Origin: Escherichia phage CMSTMSU
Sequence record: MH494197.1
Direction: 5' to 3' (one strand)
DNA length: 64,000 nt
Part shown: positions 1,725-43,399 of the stretch, one piece after another
How the letters are laid out: each line of letters starts with the position of its first letter
How positions within the stretch are numbered: the first letter of the stretch is position 1
The notes under the pieces: generated by a model
Told to the model about the DNA's origin: nothing
Seen by the model: only the letters and a program-made list of their open reading frames with translations
Database searches by the model: none
Program-made: the position numbers and the translations under genes

Positions 1725-2773
1725 TTACATCCACTTATCCGTTTGTGCTTTAATATAGAAAGGCTCGTCAACTATACTATCATGTATCAGTTGTAAACAA
1801 AATAATCTTCCAAATCTAGCACATGCTTCGTCAAAATCTTTAATGTGACGTATAGTACTTCCAACACGTACTGCCCCAAAATCTGGGAAAGAAACACTAA
1901 ATCCATATTCTAGTGCTTGTTCTATTGTTTGTAATCCATCCTTATCACGGTCAGGTACGATAACAATCTTTTTACCTTTTTCTTGTGCAGCTTTAAGTAC
2001 ATCTATTTGTACTGCTGACAATTTAAAGTTATTTGCAGAAACACCACCCATTAGTGCTGCATCCATTGGACCTTCACAAACTAATATAGTTTTAATTCGT
2101 TCATCTTGTAACAGATCATAATTATATAGAATATTAGTACTGACCTGATTAATAAAACGATAGGTACTTCCGGTCTTTAAGTTTGTGTCTAGCAGTATAT
2201 CCGATAATTTTACCGTTCATAACGTATGGTATGATAAATCGGTCATACATTTTATGTTCTTTAGCTGGACTCAATACAATTCTAAATCTAATAGATATGG
2301 ATTTCGCTCATTCACATGATTCAGAACACTAATAAATTCTTGTGGTATTTGCTCTTCTGGTAACGATGCCCATTCCCAGAATGTTTTTGAGTTCGGTGGT
2401 AATTCACGAACAGTTACACGTTGATATAGTTTAGATGCAGTAGTTTCTTGTTCTGCAAAGTCTCCACTATCAACCATTTCTTTAATGTAAAATTTAGCTA
2501 GTTCTATTTCCTTATCCTGTGCACCAAAGAAATGAGCAAAGACTCCATATCTTTGCTCATATATTTTCCAGTTGCCACCCAGTTTTTAGACTACAGTTAA
2601 AACAGTTATAAGAAACAGAACCATCTGCATTAAACATATGATTGCCGCGATTTTTAGTATCGGGGCGTGAATGACCACGGAACACACAAGCAGGACAATT
2701 GTGATGTGTCCACATACCAATTCGGTACTGGGTCATTCATGATTTGTGCCATGATGTTTTGTACAGCGTTCAT
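1725..2773 (-). CDS. DNA primase (zinc ribbon plus TOPRIM), several frame breaks
   Basis: Zinc ribbon HNCPACVF...YNCFNCS near the N-terminus in an alternate frame; TOPRIM motif KKIVIVPDRDKDG in ORF 1725-2066; SD and ATG at 2771-2773. Confidence 0.75.
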
Positions 2774-2802
2774 AATTTAATCCTTGTTATTTCTCACAAA
2801 TG

Positions 2803-2831
2803 ATTATAGCACAAACACTTGTTTTGTCTCA
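2803..2831 (-). promoter_or_regulatory. Early sigma70-like promoter for primase/helicase (TGAGAC, 17 nt, TGcTATAAT)
   Basis: Minus-sense TGAGAC (plus 2826-2831), 17-nt spacer, extended -10 TGCTATAAT (plus 2803-2808 = attata). Confidence 0.5.
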
Positions 2832-3185
2832 CCTGCGAATCAAAATTTTAGGAACTGACAGTAGTGGGTCATAGACTTTTCTTACTGCCGCATAGTCATA
2901 AGGAACTGGAACGATCTTAGGATGAATACAAACAACCAATCGCAACCACATGTAATTACCTTTAAAATTAAATGCTTGAATCCCATCTAACGCTTTAGGG
3001 AATCCATTTTCATCAATATCATTTTCGATATATTCTTTACCATCCAATTTAACAATAAACCATTTATAGTTTTCGTTATCAGTTGGTACGTTATTACACA
3101 AACATCCTTGTAATTGAATTCTACCAATAAATTTATCAAAGTACATTGCAATAGTACTAAGACCATCAACTAATCCGTACTGCAT
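2829..3185 (-). CDS. Hypothetical early protein (probably extends upstream after a frame break)
   Basis: ORF with phage-like composition in the early-gene block. Confidence 0.35.
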   Translation of the reverse strand: MQYGLVDGLSTIAMYFDKFIGRIQLQGCLCNNVPTDNENYKWFIVKLDGKEYIENDIDENGFPKALDGIQAFNFKGNYMWLRLVVCIHPKIVPVPYDYAAVRKVYDPLLSVPKILIRR

Positions 3186-3515
3186 TTGTGCAGGAAGGGA
3201 GATGTTGCCATTATATCAAATTCACCAATAACGCCACGAGCGATTGGTTCATGATAAAGCGTTTGATGGTAGTCCATGCTGGGTTTTATTAACAGATACT
3301 TCAATACTTGGCACAAACACAGGAGCAGCTTGGTCGGAAATGATCAATTCAGCAGAGGCTTCATAATCAAGACCAGTGTATAAGTACTGTGTAGGTTCAA
3401 TCAAGGAACCATCCATTGTTACTTTAGTAATACTCCATCTATATTTTGAACGGGACTAGTATCCTGAATTACACCAGCAGGAACAATACATCCATAATAT
3501 ACTTTTTACTATTAC

Positions 3516-3801
3516 CTAATGTTTGTCTTGCTTGTCCACTTTCTGATAGCCATGATGGTTTTGTTTATCCAGAACTACATCGAATAATTTAGTATTGTTT
3601 CTAGCATCAAAAATCATGAATGTTAGATATTCGTTATCTTTTAGTAATGTATATTTTCCATCAGCATTATGCACAGTGAATGATAAATTGTTATTTGCAC
3701 CTCTGTATATTGTAAGTTTCTCATTGCTGTATGGCATATTAAAATTGCCCAATGATACTTCTTGGTTATAAGGGTACATAAACACGCCGTGATGAGCCAT
3801 A
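3516..3801 (-). CDS. Hypothetical small protein
   Basis: Plausible start MAHHGVF at 3799-3801; the upstream part of listed ORF 3516-4034 is low complexity. Confidence 0.3.
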
Positions 3802-3857
3802 GTTTTTCCTTCCATAAATAATAGGTATAAATTTATACTAATATTTATGGAACTCAT

Positions 3858-4184
3858 ATGAATCAATATAATACTATTCCACCATTTATCACGGTAGTTC
3901 AGTGTGATGGTAAAACTTTCATTGGTATTATCAAGATAAAAAGTAAACAGTATACTACTCTTTACTGCTTTGATGATATGGATGAACCAATGCAAGATGA
4001 ATTGTTGGGTATAGCACATGATTGGTGGTGGCAAAGCAACAGGTCAATTCCAGTCTGTCTATTCTTCCAAGAAGAGATGGAGAAATTTGAACCTTACACA
4101 CAGAGATTCGATACCTGCGGTGAATTTCGTTTGTGGTCCAGTAGTTTCTTTATGATTTGCCACAAAACGCATCAAGCGTCGTAA
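3858..4184 (+). CDS. Hypothetical small protein on the opposite strand
   Basis: ORF preceded by ATAAATAA and TATAAAT late-promoter-like motifs at 3812-3835. Confidence 0.3.
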   Translation: MNQYNTIPPFITVVQCDGKTFIGIIKIKSKQYTTLYCFDDMDEPMQDELLGIAHDWWWQSNRSIPVCLFFQEEMEKFEPYTQRFDTCGEFRLWSSSFFMICHKTHQAS

Positions 4185-4192
4185 TGTGGCTC

Positions 4193-4860
4193 TTAAGAAG
4201 AAGTAAGATGTTCAACTAAAGCGTTAAGTTGAACTACAATCATTAAGCTGTATGCATACGCATGTGGCTTTTTGAAATATCGTAACTTATTTCCTGCTTG
4301 GTCTGTGCCAATAGTACTGTAATCCCATATAGTGGATTCAACTTCACTCCATGTATTCATACTTTGGCACTGCCTTTTCAGACGAATCATTGCAATAAAC
4401 ATTGCAAGTTCATCAATGGATTTAGGTTTCCACACATTTAATAATGTAACGTGTTTTTAATCTGTGAAAGATGTTCAACTATTTCTGGTTCTAACAGAAG
4501 ATCCCAATTAGGTTCCTGATTCATTAGTTCTTTTAAATGTGCTCTATCACGAACATACTGGTAAGCCGATTGTGACAGGATATCTACCTTTTGATATCCC
4601 AAGCGTTCGGCTTCTTTATATTGTATGCTGGCTAAACCAGTGATAGGGTCAATTGGTATATTATCAAAATGAACACCACTGTTATGGGGATTAAACCATC
4701 CTCCGTAATTTTTCTGTACTTCGCACACAAGGAAGCTGTGCAATCACTGACTTACTATCTTTAAAGTCAATGTCGATATCTGTTCGTGCTTTACGGTACG
4801 AATTAGAATTTGTCGAATCCTGCATTTTTGATTTGCTCCTGCAATTTGTTTACAGTGTTA
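4193..4860 (-). CDS. Hypothetical protein (~220 aa, frame-disrupted)
   Basis: ORFs 4193-4435 and 4438-4743 plus an upstream start MQDSTNSNSYRK read as one protein across frame breaks. Confidence 0.4.
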
Positions 4861-4882
4861 GATAATTTGGTTACCTGATTTT

Positions 4883-5131
4883 CTAACATTGTACACTTTG
4901 TTTGGTCTTTGACAACTCTTGACTTAGACCAAAGAATCTTTCCTCATGTCTTTCAACCATACTGATAATTTTTTCTACACGAACAGGATCGTGCACCTGA
5001 AAGGTTTTACCATCAAGTGTAATTTCAGTTATAGAACCCTGTCTAAGCAATGATAAAGATTTAGATTTATCTGCTTTTGGCACAGGTACATACCCTTCTG
5101 GTATTTTATTATATATACTTTTTCCATTCAT
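4883..5131 (-). CDS. Hypothetical protein
   Basis: 82-aa ORF. Confidence 0.35.
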   Translation of the reverse strand: MNGKSIYNKIPEGYVPVPKADKSKSLSLLRQGSITEITLDGKTFQVHDPVRVEKIISMVERHEERFFGLSQELSKTKQSVQC

Positions 5132-5134
5132 AAT

Positions 5135-5683
5135 CCAGCCTCACGTAGCATACTTTTTATTTCATCACATTCCTTTTTGTACTTTATAGTTTTAACCTCA
5201 AAGTAACTAGGATCAATGTATTTAAGTATATACTCGATTTCAGAGTTAGAGAGATTCTTGAAAAACTTATTAGTACTTTCTTTTGGTGCTAACCAGATAA
5301 TCCAAGGTGAAATCTTACCACTCTCAATCCATGCAATTGCACGGGCAGAACTAACATTGGAAAAAACTTATTCCACTCCAAGTTCAGATTCTGACCCCAT
5401 TCCACCATCGCAACAACACTACGGAAACCGCAGCATTGGGAGATTCAGAACGAATACAATCTAATATCCATTCATCCTTTGCTTTATAAGTACTCCATTC
5501 CATAATAGGACGGTTTCTTACAATTAGACTTTTTACAAAACCATCAATATCTAAAATATCACGGTTGTTCAAATAATAAATTGCAAAATCATAAAAATCA
5601 CTAAAGTACTTTGATTTTATAAAAGCCATTAATGGTTCAACACCCTTCTTGAAAGGGAAATGGTTTAACTCCATGAATTGCAT
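5135..5683 (-). CDS. Hypothetical protein (~180 aa, one frame break)
   Basis: ORF 5384-5683 continues in another frame to about 5135. Confidence 0.4.
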
Positions 5684-5835
5684 ATAATGCGAAAAGCCTC
5701 CCTCATGGGGCGGCTATCACGATCTTCGTAGCGGTCACGTTTAACACACTTATGTGTGTTAACTGTGTCTTCGCGTTTAAATTCTTTATCACAGAACTTA
5801 CATTTGTATACGGGACTACTTGATTTCTTTGCCAT
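5665..5835 (-). CDS. Small zinc-finger protein (56 aa, C-x2-C-x12-H-x-C)
   Basis: MAKKSSSPVYKCKFCDKEFKREDTVNTHKC...; start overlaps the stop of the upstream gene and its 3' end overlaps the next start. Confidence 0.4.
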   Translation of the reverse strand: MAKKSSSPVYKCKFCDKEFKREDTVNTHKCVKRDRYEDRDSRPMREAFRIICNSWS

Positions 5836-6659
5836 ATTTCTTACATTCTTCTTTAAATAATTTCATCATTGATTTCATTTCTTTCTCTTGTAAACCTATG
5901 TCTTCAAGGAAAGACTCGAATGTTTTTTGTTATATTGCAACAAAACAATTTTATATTCATCTTCGTTCATTTGAGTTGCGATTGAATCTGGCTGTGTACT
6001 TTTAATGAGTTCAAATAATTCATTATTAGCACGCTTAAAACTCTTGGAAAAGTTTAACCAGTTTCGTGGCAATTCCTTACCACCCAACATATCATGAACA
6101 GAACATAGTAGTTGATATACAAGTTCAGGGTGTTCTTTCATGTCCCAGAACCCATCATTAACCATATCATTCAACATAATCAACTGATAACGTACAACGT
6201 CACTGTCAACCAATGAGATGATCTGTCCACCAGCAATACTAAATTCAGTCATTGCGGCAATCAACTTGTTAGCATCATCATTGCTTTGTACGGCAAACTT
6301 GATACGCCAATCATAGTCACTGTGACAGTACTTAGTAACTGATGTTACATTAACACCAGTACTATTGAGTTCTTTGACAAGTTCAGTGAGTGCTTCTTTG
6401 CCACCAGCTTTCCACTTACCAAATACGTTTTCCACTTTACTACTAGGAAAGTTACTTGAAGTGAGTCATCAAGTGAACTTACCCAACGAAGTACAGTATA
6501 AGGCGTAAATTCCTTACGCTCATCTTCGGTCATGTCATTATAGTATTTGTAATCTGCACGGTCAATATGTTTTAGAAATTCAGCAATAGAAAATGTATGC
6601 TGGGTTGGTTTATCGTTTTCGTCTACTGACTTAGCTTTAATATTACTGAAATCTAACAC
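5823..6659 (-). CDS. Hypothetical protein (~275 aa, frame-disrupted)
   Basis: ORFs 6345-6659 and 5896-6435 plus a short C-terminal frame. Confidence 0.4.
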
Positions 6660-6669
6660 TATTACACTC

Positions 6670-7158
6670 CTAGATACAAATCTTGAATTTTCTCGTTCTC
6701 ATCTGCAAAGTAAACACAAGGTGGATTGTCACCACTGTGCAGAGGAACACATAGTAAGTTCTTCTTAGGCAACATAGGATCTGCCATTTAGTAGTGAGTG
6801 CGAATACACGCAGCACTTTTACAGGTTCGAACTTAGGATACATTGAGCGGATTGGATTGTAAACAAAAGCTTTAGGTTCTTTCATATTAAGAATGTTTTC
6901 AATGGTACACATCTCAACCATACCTGTCTCTTCATCACCCAACATGATTTGCCAACCCAATGGTACTTGGATAATCTTTTCACCAATCTGCAAATCAGCA
7001 CTGATACTATTAAATGACACAGTGTTTAAAATGTGGCGAAAATAAAAGTCAGAGTCACCGTTTGGACTCAAATCTAAAACACAATACATTTCTGATGGAA
7101 TGTGTTCAGTTACTAAATCCATATCAAATGAATTATTTTCTGGGGTTAATACGTTCAT
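6670..7158 (-). CDS. Hypothetical protein
   Basis: First ~115 aa plausible, then frame break. Confidence 0.35.
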   Translation of the reverse strand: MNVLTPENNSFDMDLVTEHIPSEMYCVLDLSPNGDSDFYFRHILNTVSFNSISADLQIGEKIIQVPLGWQIMLGDEETGMVEMCTIENILNMKEPKAFVYNPIRSMYPKFEPVKVLRVFALTTKWQILCCLRRTYYVFLCTVVTIHLVFTLQMRTRKFKICI

Positions 7159-7167
7159 CTCATCTCC

Positions 7168-7593
7168 TTAGTACTGGGAATCTTCATCTTCATCGTAGTA
7201 ATCTTCTTCATCTTCATCGGATGTACCATAGAATTCAAGACCATACGTTTCACACATTTCTTGAATCTTATCAACATCAGTATCTAAGTAAGAATCAAAA
7301 TTACCACTAAGACTAACAACATCAATAAACGTTGTAGTATCAGTACTTGCATAGATGATATCATATTTTAATGATTCAACTTTCGAGTCAATTCTGGTTT
7401 GCAATTCATAGATATTAATCCATGAATTAGTGTCAATATTACATCTCCAAACATTAGTATCGTCAGTTTCTAGTTCAGGTATATAGTCAAGTGAAGATAC
7501 CATGTCATCCATAATACCATCATTCAACAATACATCAATTACATCTAACGTTTCTTGGTCACAGATAAAAGCAATACTAGATCTTAATTCCAT
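7168..7593 (-). CDS. Strongly acidic small protein (141 aa)
   Basis: D/E-rich throughout; C-terminus SDEDEEDYYDEDEDSQY; own SD AAGGAAG. Confidence 0.5.
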   Translation of the reverse strand: MELRSSIAFICDQETLDVIDVLLNDGIMDDMVSSLDYIPELETDDTNVWRCNIDTNSWINIYELQTRIDSKVESLKYDIIYASTDTTTFIDVVSLSGNFDSYLDTDVDKIQEMCETYGLEFYGTSDEDEEDYYDEDEDSQY

Positions 7594-7628
7594 TTTTATT
7601 TTACTTCCTTGTTGTTGTCATACGACAC

Positions 7629-7660
7629 ATTATATCATGCACAGCGGATTATCCCGCTGT
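7629..7660 (-). promoter_or_regulatory. Early promoter (TGaTATAAT) with overlapping 7-bp palindrome
   Basis: Minus-sense TGATATAAT at plus 7629-7637; palindrome acagcgg/ccgctgt at 7641-7660 covers the UvsW-like stop and the -35 region. Confidence 0.4.
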
Positions 7661-9129
7661 ATTTTCCCAATCCTTAACATCTATGATACTATGAGGATAT
7701 TGTGCTTCCTTGTAGTATTGTAAACGTTCACGTAAGTGTTTTGCACTATATTTGTTTGTACCACTGATATCAAAGATTTCCACGTGGTCTTTGTCTTCTG
7801 CTCGACGCAACCCACGACCAATGGACTGTATGGTACGAACGAAGCTCTTTCCGGTTCGATTAGAACAACATTATACAAACGAGAAATACTGATACCAGTA
7901 CTTGCTACCCCATAGGTTGCAATGAGTATTTTGTTATCAGCCCAGCGAATTTCACCATATGAAGATTCACGATCTTTCTTTTGGTTTCACCACGAACAAA
8001 TTCTGACTTAGGAATACCCAAAAATTCACAAAGTAATTCACCAGCTTCAAGTCTATCAACCAGTACTAAAGTGTTTCCAGATTCTGCTAACGCACCTATC
8101 AGTGATGCTACATATGCCATTCTATCACGGTCAGTAACTAAGTACTTCAATTCTTCTGCATATGACGCGAACTTTAAATTACTTTTAAGTTTAATACAGT
8201 TCACATTACATGTGCTTAGTATTTTTTATCTTGTAATTCTTTAGCTGTGATTTTAAATATCACATCGCCAACGTTACATTTAATCTTCGCAGCGACAACT
8301 TGGTCTTTAGGATTGTACCAGTTAATCCCCAGCGAAGTGGGACGTTATTCATAACTTTAGAGAGTACTTGAACTAATGCATCACCACCAGCACCTTGACA
8401 CTCATCAACAATCACACAAACCACACCATCAATAAAGTCATGAACGTCTTGTTCAGTCAGTTCAATTTCACCTTTCTTTGTTTTCTTCCACAAAGAGTTG
8501 AATGACTGCCGTAGTGATTGTGTGTTGGTGACCAAAGTCTTTCTGTGCACCATAGAACACTCCAGTGTCAAGACCACACATAACATAGTCATCATATGTT
8601 TGCTGCACCAAATCAGTACTGGGTACGATAATCACAGAACGTCCATACTCCTGTACCTTCTTGGATAATGCTGCTGTGATGAGCGTTTTACCAGCCCCTG
8701 TAGCTGCTAATAATAAACCATGTGGGTTTGCAAGGCAAGCATTAACTGCGTTCACCTGATGCTCTCTGAGCTTGATTGACTTACCTTCCATGTGGTGTCC
8801 AGCACCAAACACAACATCACTAAAAATATCTTCATCAATTGGTTCAAAATTGAATCCGTAATTGACACGATGATCTTCAAGTTCAATATCAATTTTGCTT
8901 CATCTAAGATTGGCAACAACTTATCCAACATGTGGTAGTAAGTACTGCCACCTAAGTTCATAAACTGTACCTTACCATCCCAACGACCAATACGACCAGC
9001 AGGGGTGAACTTAGCGTATGGAAGTACATATTCTGTTGCACGAATCATCTTCTGACGAATTGAGGATCTAGTCCCTCAAATTTACAATTAACCTCGTCCA
9101 GTAAGGTTAGCTTACAAGTTTTCATCCAT
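7649..9129 (-). CDS. uvsW: UvsW-like SF2 DNA helicase (frame-disrupted)
   Basis: N-terminal GRIGRWDGKV, motif I AATGAGKT, DECQ (motif II), C-terminal IQSIGRGLR; pattern matches T4 UvsW from memory. Confidence 0.7.
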
Positions 9130-9140
9130 GAATACCTTTA

Positions 9141-9959
9141 TTAATTAGTTCGAGTATTATATTCGTACTCAAATGTATATACTAAATCTTTATCACAGTT
9201 TGGGTTACTTGCATCAAGAATATCACTGTTAGTAATCATCCATTCAATATAGTTCAATGGAACAGTTTCCATTGGTTCGCCTTTGTGTTTACCAAATGGC
9301 ATGAATTTATAACGCATTGGTGTATTACAGAATGTTACGATTTGTTCACCAATGTCACCATTAGGGTCAATATGTCCACGTTCAATCGCAACTTCAATCA
9401 ATTTGATTAGAACTTGATAACACATAAACACGTCATCTTTTGCTGCGTGAGCATTGACTGCACGATGTACATCACGATAGCAACCAAATTTATACCACAA
9501 ATAACTTAGAGTTAAGTTTTTGAATTCAGTGTCTTCTGCAAACATCTTCTTAGCTAAACGAAGGGTACAAATCCATTTATCTTCATCGAGCAAGTACTGC
9601 GAAACTGAGTTACGATATTTATATTCGTTATCTACCATCATTCGGCGGTCAAATTGAACGTTGTGTCCAATAAAATAATTACGACACCCCATTAGTGCGT
9701 CAATGTTTTCTAAGTCATCTTTATATCCAATGCAGTTTGCTACATCTTCAGTACTGATAAAATGCACAGCACTTGCTTCTGGTGGTATATCTTTTAGTGG
9801 TTTATAACGCAAAGTGTAGTTATCAATAGTATCAATATTCTCATGTGCACCGTGAGGATATGAAATACTAAATTCAATAATATCATCTTCACTTTCTACA
9901 CCAGTCGTTTCGGTGTCTAGTACTGATACGTTTGATAGGAACTCATCTAATTTTGTCAT
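9141..9959 (-). CDS. DnaQ-like 3'-5' exonuclease (DexA-like)
   Basis: Exo I motif VLDTETTG near the N-terminus, 272 aa. Confidence 0.65.
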   Translation of the reverse strand: MTKLDEFLSNVSVLDTETTGVESEDDIIEFSISYPHGAHENIDTIDNYTLRYKPLKDIPPEASAVHFISTEDVANCIGYKDDLENIDALMGCRNYFIGHNVQFDRRMMVDNEYKYRNSVSQYLLDEDKWICTLRLAKKMFAEDTEFKNLTLSYLWYKFGCYRDVHRAVNAHAAKDDVFMCYQVLIKLIEVAIERGHIDPNGDIGEQIVTFCNTPMRYKFMPFGKHKGEPMETVPLNYIEWMITNSDILDASNPNCDKDLVYTFEYEYNTRTN

Positions 9960-9975
9960 TTTATTCTCGATAGAA

Positions 9976-9996
9976 AAGGACGCGTAATGCGTCCTT
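9976..9996 (-). terminator. Palindromic hairpin between gene 10005-10462 and the exonuclease start
   Basis: aaggacgc-gtaat-gcgtcctt, 8-bp stem; weak U tract in minus sense. Confidence 0.35.
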
Positions 9997-10004
9997 ATGG
10001 ATAG

Positions 10005-10462
10005 TTATTCTAAACGTGCATCTTCAATACCCGCAGCACGTAGTCTCACAATATTGTTTAACTGAAAAGCTTTCATCTCTAAGGATTTAACAATACTGGA
10101 AAACGTATTACGGATATATGATACTTCATTTATTAGTTCGGATAATTCACAAACTTCTTTATCACCTTCAACATACTTTTACAGTCAGAAGATGATAGTG
10201 CTCGACGATATGCTTCAAGGAAATATTTAAACTTTTCAGCTTGTAGTTGACGCATTTCAATTTCTAGCATTTCAAGTACCGCTTTAGTTCTTGAAGCTGA
10301 CTGAGACGAGTCTCATGCCAGCCGAATCTCCTGAGCAATCTTTTCAATGATGCCAATCTTTTTAACTTCACGACGAGCTTCTTCAGTTTCTTTTTCGAAG
10401 TGTTCAATCATGTCGATTATTTTAGATTTATCATCTTTGATGATCCAATGCCAAGGTTTCAT
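10005..10462 (-). CDS. Coiled-coil protein, possible UvsY-like recombination mediator
   Basis: Translationally coupled (TAATG overlap) downstream of the UvsX-like gene; C-terminal pattern resembles T4 UvsY from memory. Confidence 0.35.
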
Positions 10463-10647
10463 TATTCCTCACTACTTCCAATATCAGTACCAAATGATTC
10501 ATCACCTTTTTCTTCTTCTTTGACTTCTTCAATCAAAGGGTGACGTTTGAATTGATTCATAACTAAATCAAGACAAGAATCTTCGTTACGCATCCATTCT
10601 TTACGATATTTTAGAATCTGTTCACCAGTGTCAATATCAACGTACAT
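10462..10647 (-). CDS. Small acidic protein (61 aa)
   Basis: ORF coupled to both neighbours by 1-nt overlaps. Confidence 0.3.
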   Translation of the reverse strand: MYVDIDTGEQILKYRKEWMRNEDSCLDLVMNQFKRHPLIEEVKEEEKGDESFGTDIGSSEE

Positions 10648-11579
10648 TAGACGTTACCCGATTTAACGATAAGTTCATATTTCTCGAACATATCTAGTAG
10701 ACCACTGCGTGGGTCCATACCTTTATCCCAAGGAATTTTAATCTCAACATCTTCAAATGGTTTGTTGTAACGAGTCTTCATGACTTTACATTTAGAACGA
10801 ATACCACTTACATCTGAAGTCTTGTTGCCTTCTTCATCTTCTTTAAGTTTTAGTTTACCCATTGCGATAACCATAGAAGATGCATAAATCAAACCACTAC
10901 CACCAGATACTTTTGGATCAGGGTTGAACATATCTTGGGATTCATAACTATGGTTTACACAAACCATACCAATGTTAAGTGAACCAATCGAGTTTACGCA
11001 GTTGGTGATGTAAGCTTTAAGCTGTTTAGGTTTGTGACCCATATCACCTTTCAAGTTACCAGCTTTCATCTGGTCATTAGCAACTTCAGTATTCAACATA
11101 CCAATTGAGTCGATAATGAATAATACTTTTTGACGTTCTTCTTTAGGAGTATTTTCGTATTCTTTACGATACCCTTCGATGAACTCATAGGTAAATTTAG
11201 CAACATCACCAATCATACCCATGTTTACTTTTAGTAGTTTTTCTTCTGAAGTGTCTACACCTAGTGCTTGTAGCCAATCTGAATCCAATGCGTTCTCGGA
11301 ATCAATCATAACAACAAAGATACCTTGTTGTTGTGCTTCACGGGCGATGTTTCCAGAAACGATAAATGATTTACCAGAACCAGATTCACCAGCAAACATT
11401 GTTACTTTACCCAGTGGAATACCACGGTCAAAATAACCACTAATACGATAGTTCAAAGCAAAGTTACCAGTACTAATCCATGTATCAGGATCATGAAAGC
11501 CTACGCTAACACCAGTATTCTTTTTAACGCTACCAGTACTATTTTTTAGAATGTTTGCAAAACCACTTGTCATTTTCAT
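10647..11579 (-). CDS. uvsX: RecA/UvsX-like recombinase
   Basis: Walker A FAGESGSGKSF, RecA-type FIIDSIGML, 310 aa. Confidence 0.8.
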   Translation of the reverse strand: MKMTSGFANILKNSTGSVKKNTGVSVGFHDPDTWISTGNFALNYRISGYFDRGIPLGKVTMFAGESGSGKSFIVSGNIAREAQQQGIFVVMIDSENALDSDWLQALGVDTSEEKLLKVNMGMIGDVAKFTYEFIEGYRKEYENTPKEERQKVLFIIDSIGMLNTEVANDQMKAGNLKGDMGHKPKQLKAYITNCVNSIGSLNIGMVCVNHSYESQDMFNPDPKVSGGSGLIYASSMVIAMGKLKLKEDEEGNKTSDVSGIRSKCKVMKTRYNKPFEDVEIKIPWDKGMDPRSGLLDMFEKYELIVKSGNV

Positions 11580-11643
11580 AATTCGCTCCTTGAATTTTAT
11601 GAATAAAACCGCAAACTCCGTTGCCCTTAACTTTCAAATACTA

Positions 11644-12687
11644 TTACTTACCTTGTTGTTTCAAACGAGCAACTAGTGCAGATGCAGAAAGTTGTTCTTT
11701 TGGAGCTTCAGCTACTGGTGCTGGTGCAGCAGCTACTGGTTCAGCAGCAGGAGTAGGAGTAGCTACTGGTGCTTGCGGTGCAGGAGTTTGTGCAGGAGCA
11801 GGTTGTTGTACTGGAGCTTGTGGAGCAGGTTTGTTTTCACTAATAGTACCAGTTGTTGGTTTTGTACACCTGCTGGACGGTAAGCGAAAGCCCAACGTGC
11901 AGGGTCATAAGGTTTACCATCAACAGATGCTTCGAACATTTCTTCGATAGCTTTTAGTTCTTCTGAGTTGGTTGTTTTGGCATAAAATCATTTAGATTAT
12001 ATAGACCAAACTTTTCAATCGCTGCCAGTTCTTCTTCATTGAGTGGACGCTCTGACATGGAGAATTGAGACATGTCATAGCTATTGTAACCACCACCATT
12101 CTTAGTTTTAACAATACCAAAGTCACGACCGTGAATGTAGTGAGTTGGTAGTTCTTTGATGCCCGGTTTAGCAGGATAGATTTAACTTTATCAAAGATAT
12201 CTTTGTTAGCTAGGATACGACGGATTGGGTTTTCTGGAGCAATATCGTCTTTTACTGCTACGCTATCAGAGCAACGAAACATTGCATTAGATAGGTTTTC
12301 TTTTCCAGTAACGACCAGCCATTGCTTTCAGTTCTTCGTTTCCAGTTTCATTCGCACTTTGGAACCATTGACGTACTTCTTTAAGAATTGGACATGATTT
12401 AGGAACCCACATTTCGTTACATGGTACTTGAACGGTAACTTTATCGGTGTGCATACCAACAATACCTTGGAACGTTAGGTTGATCATATCACGTTCACGC
12501 CAGAAGAATGGGTTAGACTCATCAGCATCTGGTAGAAAACGTAGGTTTAGTGGTTCATTGTAAGGGACATTCCAGAAAGCTAGGAAAGAATCGGCTTTAC
12601 GTTCACCTGTAAATGTACCATTCTTCTGTGCTTCTGCTTTTCTTGTTCAGCTTTTAGTTTTGCACGAATTTCAGCTAGAGTTTGCAT
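11644..12687 (-). CDS. gp32-like single-stranded DNA-binding protein (frame-disrupted)
   Basis: N-terminus ...NLRFLP... resembles T4 gp32 (IRFLP); ends in a Pro/Ala/Gln-rich tract. Confidence 0.65.
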
Positions 12688-12774
12688 ATTGGGCTTCCTT
12701 GTCATTAGTTTGTTTGTTAAGTTTTAACGGGCTATTAACGTTGATTTGTCTTCATTGACTCATCAACAATTTAC

Positions 12775-12803
12775 ATTATATCATGGGATTTTTAACCGTC
12801 CCA
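12775..12803 (-). promoter_or_regulatory. Early promoter for gp32-like gene (TGGGAC, 17 nt, TGaTATAAT)
   Basis: Minus-sense TGGGAC (plus 12798-12803), -10 at plus 12775-12780. Confidence 0.45.
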
Positions 12804-12841
12804 AGGTTTTTTACTCTGTTTGTCAAGGCTCATTGCCCTGA

Positions 12842-18073
<5,232 letters not shown>

Positions 18074-21610: not shown

Positions 21611-21639
21611 ATTATATCTCGTGAATGATGCTTGTCTCA
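21611..21639 (-). promoter_or_regulatory. Early promoter (TGAGAC, 17 nt, TATAAT)
   Basis: Minus-sense TGAGAC (plus 21634-21639), -10 at plus 21611-21616. Confidence 0.4.
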
Positions 21640-31636: not shown

Positions 31637-32478
31637 TTATTTAGTGTTAGATTTTTGGTTGTGATTTTGGTAGTGGAGAACGAGATTTAGAAGCGGTATT
31701 TTTGGCTTCGCAACATCTTTCATTTCGCCACGAGCATTTTTACCTAGGTCTTCATCAGTGTGGGACATAGCATCTTCGTTTTCAAAATCATAATCTACTT
31801 GTTTTTCGGAAGCTTTAGCGAATTTCACTGGAGCAACACCTTGAACTGGAGATTTAGCTTCTGGAGCAACTGGGGACTTGGTATTAACGCCAGCTTTTTC
31901 TTTCTTATCAACCGCAGCAACTTGCTTAAGTTTGAAAGACTCACCAACTTTCTCATCACCGAATTGTACATCAGCAAATTCGTCTTCAGATTCTTCACCA
32001 TCAGCACCGAATTCTTCTTCCGCACCAACTTCAACTTCTTCGTCGTCAGAACCTAGGTCAACTTCATCACCACCGATTTCGTCAAACATTTGTTGTAGGC
32101 CACGGAAAGCATCTTGAATAGATTCCCATTGGTCTTCGGAAGGAACTTCTGCACCAACTTCTGCTTCAGCGTCAACTTCTTCGCCATCAGCATCAGCAGA
32201 GAATTCAACTTCTTCTTCTGCACTTTCATCTTCTTCACCTAGGGTGTATTCGATTTCAGCATTTAGACCAGCGTCTGGTTGAACATCAAAGTCTTCGTCA
32301 AGTTTTTCTTCGTCTTTGACTTCAACTTCACATTCTTCTTCGTCCATGCTTTCTTCTAGTTCTTTATTGATTTCTTGAGCTTGCTCAACAAAGTACTTAC
32401 GCATTTTTTATCAGCAACATCTTGTTCGCCGTTTGCAAACGCTTCAATTGCTTCTTGTAGTAGTTTTAAATTCGCCAT
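31637..32478 (-). CDS. Highly acidic prohead core / internal scaffold protein
   Basis: Long E/D-rich tracts; between portal and protease; cTAAATAA upstream. Confidence 0.45.
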
Positions 32479-38680: not shown

Positions 38681-38709
38681 CATTATAGCACCAAATTCAA
38701 AAGTGTCTC
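38681..38709 (-). promoter_or_regulatory. Early promoter (TGAGAC, 17 nt, TGcTATAAT) facing the ORF-less unit
   Basis: Same architecture as the primase promoter. Confidence 0.5.
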
Positions 38710-38802
38710 ACTATTATGATAAAAATTTATAAAAAGTACATAATTCTTGAACATTGAAGTAACGCATAAATATTTTGATAAGAATTAGTTTAGTGGGGAT
38801 TT

Positions 38803-43361: not shown

Positions 43362-43399
43362 ATTATAGCACCAAAACGTCTTTGTCCCACGTATAAATA
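43362..43399. promoter_or_regulatory. Divergent promoters: early (minus, TGGGAC-TGcTATAAT) and late (plus, TATAAATA)
   Basis: Minus -10 at 43362-43367; plus TATAAATA at 43392-43399. Confidence 0.5.

Follow-up and report, generated by a model that had tools for sequence, protein, structure and literature searches.

The window analysed here, 64,000 nucleotides (nt) of Escherichia phage CMSTMSU (MH494197.1), contains on its minus strand a complete open reading frame (ORF) for a strongly acidic protein of 141 amino acids (aa) (7168-7593, stop codon 7168-7170), which directly follows the gene for a UvsW-like superfamily 2 (SF2) helicase. Together with the promoter and inverted repeat that separate the two genes, it marks a boundary between transcription units in the replication/recombination block of a RaK2/121Q-type jumbo myovirus. 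121Q, Turkey3, GAP32, Vibrio phage 2.275.O and two metagenomic lineages at ~20-30% identity all share one order for this block: single-stranded DNA-binding protein (SSB), UvsX, UvsY, exonuclease, UvsW, the acidic gene, an ORF of ~165 aa and further genes up to the primase and DnaB. Judged by gene order, the acidic gene (at roughly 228 kb in a genome of ~350 kb) belongs to the strictly syntenic core of this block and not to a variable or host-takeover region. Its orthologues are 121Q gp11, CBB_282, GAP32_277 and phAPEC6 gp199c. The UvsW-like gene occupies 7649-9126 on the minus strand (upper end approximate) in five ORF fragments; the intact 121Q orthologue matches the Pfam models ResIII, DEAD and Helicase_C.

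Region 6600-8000 of the window has nucleotide matches in 45 phage records, with 98-98.5% identity to Escherichia phages TH47, fEgEco12, Turkey3 and others, and 85% to 121Q, PBECO4 and G17 (Asteriusvirus, genomes of ~350 kb); Klebsiella, Salmonella and Yersinia jumbo phages match as well. By this comparison, the window belongs to a 121Q/RaK2-type jumbo coliphage (myovirus). Alignment with the 98%-identical Turkey3 over 9.4 kb (window 2600-12000) yielded 43 deletions, no insertions and 58 mismatches, the deletions falling mostly at homopolymers and CCWGG (Dcm) sites. From this compared segment, the whole window is read as probably an uncorrected, error-prone long-read assembly, not as a carrier of pseudogenes, and deletion errors account for the fragmented state of the UvsW, SSB, UvsX, gp12 and gp13 ORFs. 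Two deletions relative to Turkey3 hit the feature itself: one G inside the palindrome and one CAT near 7518, which drops one Asp codon and explains why the protein has 141 aa in the window and 142 aa in its relatives.

Charge, family and predicted fold of the acidic protein

The protein is rich in Asp and Glu and has an acidic C-terminal run, as an earlier sequence-only reading of this DNA had described. Its 24 Asp and 14 Glu (38 residues, 27%) are accompanied by six Lys plus Arg and no His, giving a net charge of about -32 and a computed isoelectric point of ~4.05, and the chain ends in ...SDEDEEDYYDEDEDSQY. The charge is divided between a globular domain (residues 1-123; 7225-7593, minus strand), predicted to be ferredoxin-like alpha/beta with a net charge of about -21, and the tail TSDEDEEDYYDEDEDSQY (residues 124-141; 7171-7224, minus strand), predicted to be disordered, with 11 Asp/Glu, no Lys or Arg, and three Tyr, Tyr being also the terminal residue. 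Among the 66 window ORFs of at least 100 aa, the protein ranks second in acidity. A more acidic ORF of 255 aa lies at 31637-32404 on the minus strand (31% Asp plus Glu, with low-complexity Glu/Asp/Val/Gly runs); it lies near head genes and may encode a scaffold or internal head protein.

The protein belongs to PHROG 16541 (function unknown), which it matches over its full length (E 5.7e-72, residues 1-141 against positions 1-143 of 145), and it is 99% identical to the family protein P0001. A word-indexed search returned 65 homologues of 139-151 aa. A hidden Markov model (HMM) search of 1.84 billion representative proteins returned ~20 clusters, all stand-alone proteins of 128-156 aa, along with two spurious matches to repeat proteins. 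Neither this exhaustive search nor a broader second profile search revealed domain fusions, and the broader search added no new members. Neither Pfam nor the PDB sequences yielded a match to the single protein or to its profiles, and IMG/VR scans with three distant family members were negative as well. Among cultured phages, 72 records contain the family by tblastn, and their distribution over genera is matched count for count by the 72 records carrying UvsW at 60% identity or more (Escherichia 33, Klebsiella 11, Salmonella 8, Erwinia 8, Yersinia 4, others). The gene is present in every enterobacterial RaK2-like phage record, with a distant copy in Vibrio phage 2.275.O. The orthologue is not mentioned in the phAPEC6 virion-proteome paper.

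Charge and tail were compared across 30 members with 18-91% identity to the window protein. The globular part keeps a large acidic excess throughout (net charge -14 to -24). The tails, 8-29 aa long with 4-16 Asp/Glu, never contain Lys or Arg, and in 29 of the 30 members an aromatic residue lies within the last ~10 tail residues (within the last five in most). Tail sequence varies among members while composition is kept. At the sequence level, negative charge is the conserved trait of the family, kept at identities of 18-40%.

Structurally, AlphaFold2 with a deeper alignment gave a model with a predicted local distance difference test (pLDDT) score of 82.3 and a predicted template modelling (pTM) score of 0.72. 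The predicted fold is beta-alpha-beta-beta-alpha-beta-beta-beta-alpha over residues 4-116, of ferredoxin-like type, and tail residues 125-141 have pLDDT below 50, in keeping with predicted disorder. Foldseek against PDB returned nothing at E <= 0.001. In BFVD the fold matches were RaK2 and Vibrio-phage homologues, followed by weak matches to proteins annotated as 'YubB ferredoxin-like domain'. Neither known replication accessory proteins nor known DNA mimics were among the fold matches.

The best fold match outside the family, a weak one at 5% sequence identity, is Api92/YubB (DUF1281, DUF1281_C). Homology to YubB/DUF1281 is not supported: there is no Pfam match (PF06924/PF18406), and hhalign gave a probability of 1.4% with a DUF1281 alignment of low diversity. 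The Api92/YubB link is therefore kept as a lead at the level of predicted fold, to a family whose function is itself unknown. In the F plasmid record examined (L028, 8811-9781), YubB is split over two overlapping ORFs that use different frames, and the PLSDB gene table has no entry for it; this copy may carry a frameshift or be a pseudogene.

The composition had suggested a DNA-mimic anti-restriction protein, one that would act early in the manner of Ocr, ArdA or Arn to block type I restriction or BREX, or that would titrate a histone-like protein (H-NS). The composition does lie within the range of mimics. Like Ocr, ArdA, Arn, Gam and gp5.9, the protein is small, phage-encoded and extreme in its acidic excess, and its acidic-to-basic ratio of 38:6 is near the 34:6 of the 116-aa Ocr monomer (PMC4872106). 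The F plasmid adds a weak point by association, since its YubB lies between sop genes and a DNA methylase gene, a few kb from an annotated antirestriction gene. However, Pfam models and solved structures of Ocr, ArdA, ArdB-KlcA, Arn, Gam, gp5.9, Abc2 and the other solved DNA mimics revealed no sequence or fold relation to the acidic protein; in particular, the Pfam models for Ocr, ArdA and Antirestrict gave no match, and the DUF1281 profile comparison is not significant. Anti-restriction genes are, moreover, typically among the first expressed and variable between related phages, whereas the acidic gene is a core syntenic gene of the replication block with a replication-class promoter (see below), and not an early or accessory one. 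Of the roles considered, interference with restriction, BREX or a histone-like protein is the least compatible with the context, and we regard it as very improbable.

Promoter and hairpin between UvsW and the acidic gene

The acidic gene has its own promoter, as had been proposed. A sigma70-like extended -10 element, TGATATAAT (7629-7637, minus strand), lies 41 nt upstream of the ATG, and the -35 region holds the box GCGGGATA (7650-7657, minus strand), a diverged version of the class box TGAGACA (in CBB, TGAAACG). With the missing G restored, the two are spaced 13 nt apart, as in the rest of the class. Between promoter and gene, a Shine-Dalgarno-like AAGGAAG read from the sequence (7604-7610, minus strand) precedes the ATG by 10 nt, and its AAGGA motif is kept in the relatives aligned.

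Taken alone, TGNTATAAT is not enriched in the window (10 found against 6.1 +/- 2.4 expected), with nine of the ten sites on the coding strand. The promoter is nonetheless credible beyond chance because the box is invariant across relatives and belongs to a recurrent bipartite class. All 14 divergent relatives in the alignment carry TG-n-TATAAT 36-41 nt upstream of the ATG, with varying flanks and an upstream G(G/A)AT(G/A)A box. The bipartite form G(T/C)G(A/G)GA(C/T)A, N12-13, TGnTATAAT occurs at six or seven sites in the window, all on the minus strand, by a pattern derived after the sites had been seen, so that its shuffle statistic is indicative only. Sites with a GTGAGACA-like box, 12-13 nt and TGnTATAAT lie at 2803-2832, 12775-12804, 12850-12879, 21611-21638, 38682-38711 and 43362-43390. 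Mapped on Turkey3, the genes that follow are those for the primase (2803), the SSB (tandem sites at 12775 and 12850), the clamp (21611) and an SbcD-like protein (43362). A weaker site, TGCTATAAT with a CTGGGAAA box (18045-18053, minus strand), precedes an RNase H-like exonuclease gene.

The same architecture is known from CBB and GAP32, where a predicted 'divergent RpoD-like' promoter class has the -35 consensus TGAAACG; 11 of its 18 copies precede the block with DNA-synthesis genes, whereas classic RpoD-like promoters cluster in a presumed early region of small ORFs (PMC5259590). Table S6 of that paper lists Porf_282, TGGAATGAGTTAAATTTTTGTGATATAAT, which is the orthologue of the acidic-gene promoter, as CBB_281 is UvsW and CBB_282 the 145-aa homologue. 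Both the CBB 'Promoter 1'/GAP32 class and the window promoter combine an upstream box, 13 nt and TGnTATAAT. Unlike the rest of the class, the window promoter carries the box most divergent from the GTGAGACA consensus in this phage, embedded in a palindrome. By these comparative criteria, the promoter of the acidic gene is real and links the gene to the replication genes. The label 'early' given to the gene in the sequence-only reading is not borne out by its core syntenic position and by a promoter of the DNA-synthesis class rather than the presumed-early class; inferred from these two traits, pre-replicative or middle expression would fit better. In PA5oct, transcription of DNA-metabolism genes falls at the middle and late time points (PMC7318152), a timing not transferable to the acidic gene, since PA5oct has no demonstrable orthologue.

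The palindrome noted at the end of UvsW was found as described, with arms ACAGCGG/CCGCTGT (7641-7647 and 7654-7660) of 7 nt, 100% complementary and 6 nt apart, and with the TAA stop of the UvsW-like ORF (7649-7651) in its loop. Its proposed overlap with the promoter applies to the -35-like box GCGGGATA and not to the -10 box, from which it is separated by a 3-nt gap (7638-7640). By itself, a 7-bp inverted repeat is unremarkable. In Turkey3 the palindrome is TACAGCGGGA-TAA-TCCCGCTGTA, with 10-bp arms and a 3-nt loop consisting of the UvsW stop (-16.7 kcal/mol, z -5.8). As RNA, the window sequence forms a GC-rich hairpin of -12.7 to -14 kcal/mol with z of about -3 (from -2.8). No U-tract follows the stem directly in the window (tail GCAUGAUAUAAU), and a terminator scan gave no flag there; in the 121Q/G17 variant, UUUG (UUUGUGAUAUAAU) follows a stem of 8 bp, and the G17 record annotates an ARNold-predicted terminator. 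Since the acidic transcript is predicted to start downstream of it, the hairpin can, at the RNA level, belong only to the UvsW message.

Comparison of relatives reveals a variable element. Strong hairpins of other sequence occur at or just after the UvsW stop in L021, L031, L033 and a Vibrio phage, L024 (-13 to -17 kcal/mol, z -3.6 to -5.1); that of L019 is weaker (-8.4 kcal/mol, z -1.5). The palindromes of L019, L031 and L033 share a GGGAT..ATCCC core. Five relatives that keep the promoter (L008, L011, L015, L020 and L023) have no palindrome or a very weak one, and L031 and L033 have no recognisable promoter downstream of theirs. The palindromes lie at ~3950-3975 in L019, 5950-5972 in L031, 5950-5970 in L033 and 4926-4949 in L024. 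The element is probably a lineage-variable 3' hairpin of the UvsW mRNA, acting as a weak terminator or stabiliser.

The sequence-only reading had taken the palindrome for a possible operator or attenuator. As a DNA operator, it would be the target of a dimeric regulator whose binding covers the upstream promoter box and thereby represses the acidic gene. The perfect 23-bp palindrome with a 3-nt centre that overlaps the -35-like box in error-free relatives is consistent with such a site, as is the recurrence of one core at the same boundary in L019, L031 and L033. Yet many relatives with the promoter lack the palindrome or have only a very weak one, one of its arms encodes the UvsW C-terminus, and no candidate regulator was identified. 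The hairpins of L031 and L033, with no recognisable promoter beside them, are easier to reconcile with a function in RNA, at the end of the UvsW message, and the ARNold terminator call in phage G17 points the same way. Given this lineage variability and the position upstream of the predicted transcript start, control of the acidic gene by the palindrome is doubtful, and we consider an operator unlikely. With a 3' hairpin preferred, the UvsW message would end in a GC-rich hairpin with the stop codon in its loop, serving as a weak terminator or 3'-end stabiliser, and the upstream box of the sigma70-like promoter overlaps the 5' arm and loop of that hairpin (mRNA sense).

A possible accessory of recombination-dependent replication

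The acidic protein is tentatively interpreted as a polyanionic accessory of recombination-dependent replication that would act on UvsW, SSB or UvsX, as an analogue and not a homologue of T4 UvsW.1. This interpretation, to which we assign a probability of roughly 0.4, is favoured because of the core synteny, the shared promoter class, the conserved charge and the disordered acidic-aromatic tail. The composition supports a polyanion or nucleic-acid-mimic mode of action, and the context indicates where the protein would act. The promoter would drive a core gene whose product joins a ~120-aa ferredoxin-like domain (net charge of about -20) to a disordered Asp/Glu tail with an aromatic end. The acidic surface and the acidic-aromatic tail would occupy a basic nucleic-acid- or partner-binding surface of a DNA-metabolism protein, with the adjacent UvsW helicase, the phage SSB and UvsX as candidate partners. 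The model follows the acidic C-terminal regions of T4 gp32, bacterial SSB and T7 gp2.5, which act in this manner.

T4 UvsW.1 (PDB 2JPN), called a potential partner of UvsW (PMC7824862), offers the closest parallel in position. Its gene likewise lies directly after uvsW, and the protein is small and net acidic, with a function likewise unproven. Its C-terminus, ...ELEDSDDEVEESF, and that of the acidic protein, ...DEDEDSQY, are both acidic runs with an aromatic end. Unlike the ~120-aa alpha/beta domain of the far more acidic phage protein, UvsW.1 is a helical protein of 76 aa (trihelical, PMC7824862). Homology was rejected: hhalign gave a probability of 0.1%, 2JPN is absent from the fold-search matches, and the predicted fold is alpha/beta. 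No T4-type UvsW.1 is encoded in the window. In the T4 RefSeq record (L035, 3678-5441), uvsW is annotated as a fused ORF of 587 aa, the last 76 aa of which are UvsW.1 (2JPN).

A second parallel is provided by the acidic tails of SSBs. T7 gp2.5 has an acidic C-terminal tail comparable to those of gp32 and SSB. UvsW reportedly interacts with gp32 through the acidic tail of gp32 (Perumal et al. 2013). Other T4 proteins are recruited by the C-terminal region of gp32, the acidic end of which is believed to sit in the binding site for single-stranded DNA (ssDNA) (PMC11551737). In both gp32 and SSB, acidic tails bring in partners for replication and recombination and can fill the groove that binds ssDNA (PMC11551737; PMC13490951). 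The predicted tail of the acidic protein resembles the gp32 A-domain and the bacterial SSB-Ct (...DDEIPF) in being a disordered Asp/Glu segment with a hydrophobic or aromatic tip. The difference is that the acidic protein has no oligonucleotide/oligosaccharide-binding (OB) fold and is not an SSB; its tail is carried on a separate polyanionic domain. The phage's own gp32-like SSB (window ~11644-12700, fragmented; L025, 5379-6431, = 121Q gp6) has no acidic tail and ends in ...SASALVARLKQQGK. Its linker is rich in Pro, Ala and Thr, and its C-terminal peptide, ...S(A/T)S(A/D)L(L/V)A(R/K)L..., is kept in Vibrio, metagenomic and PA5oct relatives. PA5oct has no acidic gene, and its SSB carries an internal IEDDNDDLPWED patch, a two-lineage correlation that serves as a lead only. 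A more specific version of the accessory model, to which we give little credence, holds that the acidic recruiting and ssDNA-mimicking module of the gp32 A-domain is here a separate protein with an Api92/YubB-like fold, a trans-acting adaptor or regulator that would couple the tail-less SSB, UvsW and UvsX and would represent a novel type of replisome/recombination accessory.

Several points weigh against an accessory role. The partner and each mechanistic step are drawn by analogy, and the fold is, as predicted, a generic ferredoxin-like sandwich with no informative solved relative. Sequence comparison revealed no kinship with UvsW.1 or with any replication accessory protein. The tail shrinks to 8-10 aa in the most distant members and may therefore not be the essential part. 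PA5oct-type relatives hold an unrelated, non-acidic ORF of 83 aa at the same position, and the function of the acidic protein is therefore not universal among UvsW-bearing jumbo phages. This ORF contains ISGDFD and looks alike by eye; it was rejected as a homologue (hhalign probability 0.7%). Finally, conserved synteny is compatible with other roles too, given that the genes for gp5.9 and Gam lie in the DNA-metabolism and recombination modules of their phages.

This last point bears on the main rival, a DNA mimic comparable to lambda Gam or T7 gp5.9 that would inhibit a host DNA-end nuclease, helicase or structural maintenance of chromosomes (SMC) complex (RecBCD-like). Such an inhibitor would protect recombination and replication intermediates, which would explain its place among recombination genes. 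Its composition is like that of Ocr and gp5.9, negative charge is kept family-wide, and expression alongside replication genes would fit the time at which DNA ends appear. Both gp5.9 and Gam are acidic DNA mimics that target RecBCD, gp5.9 targeting MukBEF as well (PMC9836394, PMC7617805, PMC5218532). The acidic protein, however, has no fold or sequence similarity to Gam, gp5.9 or Abc2. Strict synteny with UvsW across hosts as diverse as Vibrio, Enterobacterales and Xanthomonas points, moreover, to a partner within the phage itself. We consider a host-nuclease inhibitor possible and the most serious competitor of the accessory model, at a level of plausibility that remains low.

The genes downstream extend the block. 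The orthologue of 121Q gp12 (PHROG 11279, function unknown; 6670-7158, minus strand) begins 10 nt past the stop of the acidic ORF and is probably co-transcribed with it; its 3' part is frameshifted in the window. Searches of Pfam and PDB with the gp12 and gp13 orthologues (window 6670-7158 and 5896-6659; L002, 4065-4562 and 3215-4060) gave no match. GenBank names for these orthologues conflict ('DnaB domain-containing protein', 'helicase', 'sliding-clamp-loader small subunit') and were not used as evidence. The gp14 protein has a zinc-finger-like N-terminus (CxxC...HxC) and forms with gp12 and gp13 a block of unknowns conserved like the recombinase genes.

As it stands, the acidic protein is an ordinary-looking conserved hypothetical protein of unproven function. 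Already known are the gene, as hypothetical in dozens of genomes, its promoter, as listed for CBB, and the hairpin annotated in G17. New are the charge-conserved domain of predicted ferredoxin-like fold with its SSB-Ct-like tail, the strict synteny with UvsW and the parallel with UvsW.1 and a tail-less SSB. Some 80% of RaK2/121Q-type jumbo phage genes lack an assigned function, and several of these phages are under development against E. coli, Klebsiella and Salmonella. The acidic gene is one of four consecutive unknowns (121Q gp11-gp14), conserved as strictly as the neighbouring recombinase and helicase genes. If it encodes a host-nuclease inhibitor, DNA mimics would gain a new fold, and the protein might serve defence systems as a trigger or target. 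If its product acts in trans on UvsW or SSB as an acidic adaptor or regulator, this would reveal another organisation of the acidic-tail interaction network of T4 and bacterial SSB. A function for this gene would fill a gap in how RaK2/121Q-type phages replicate.

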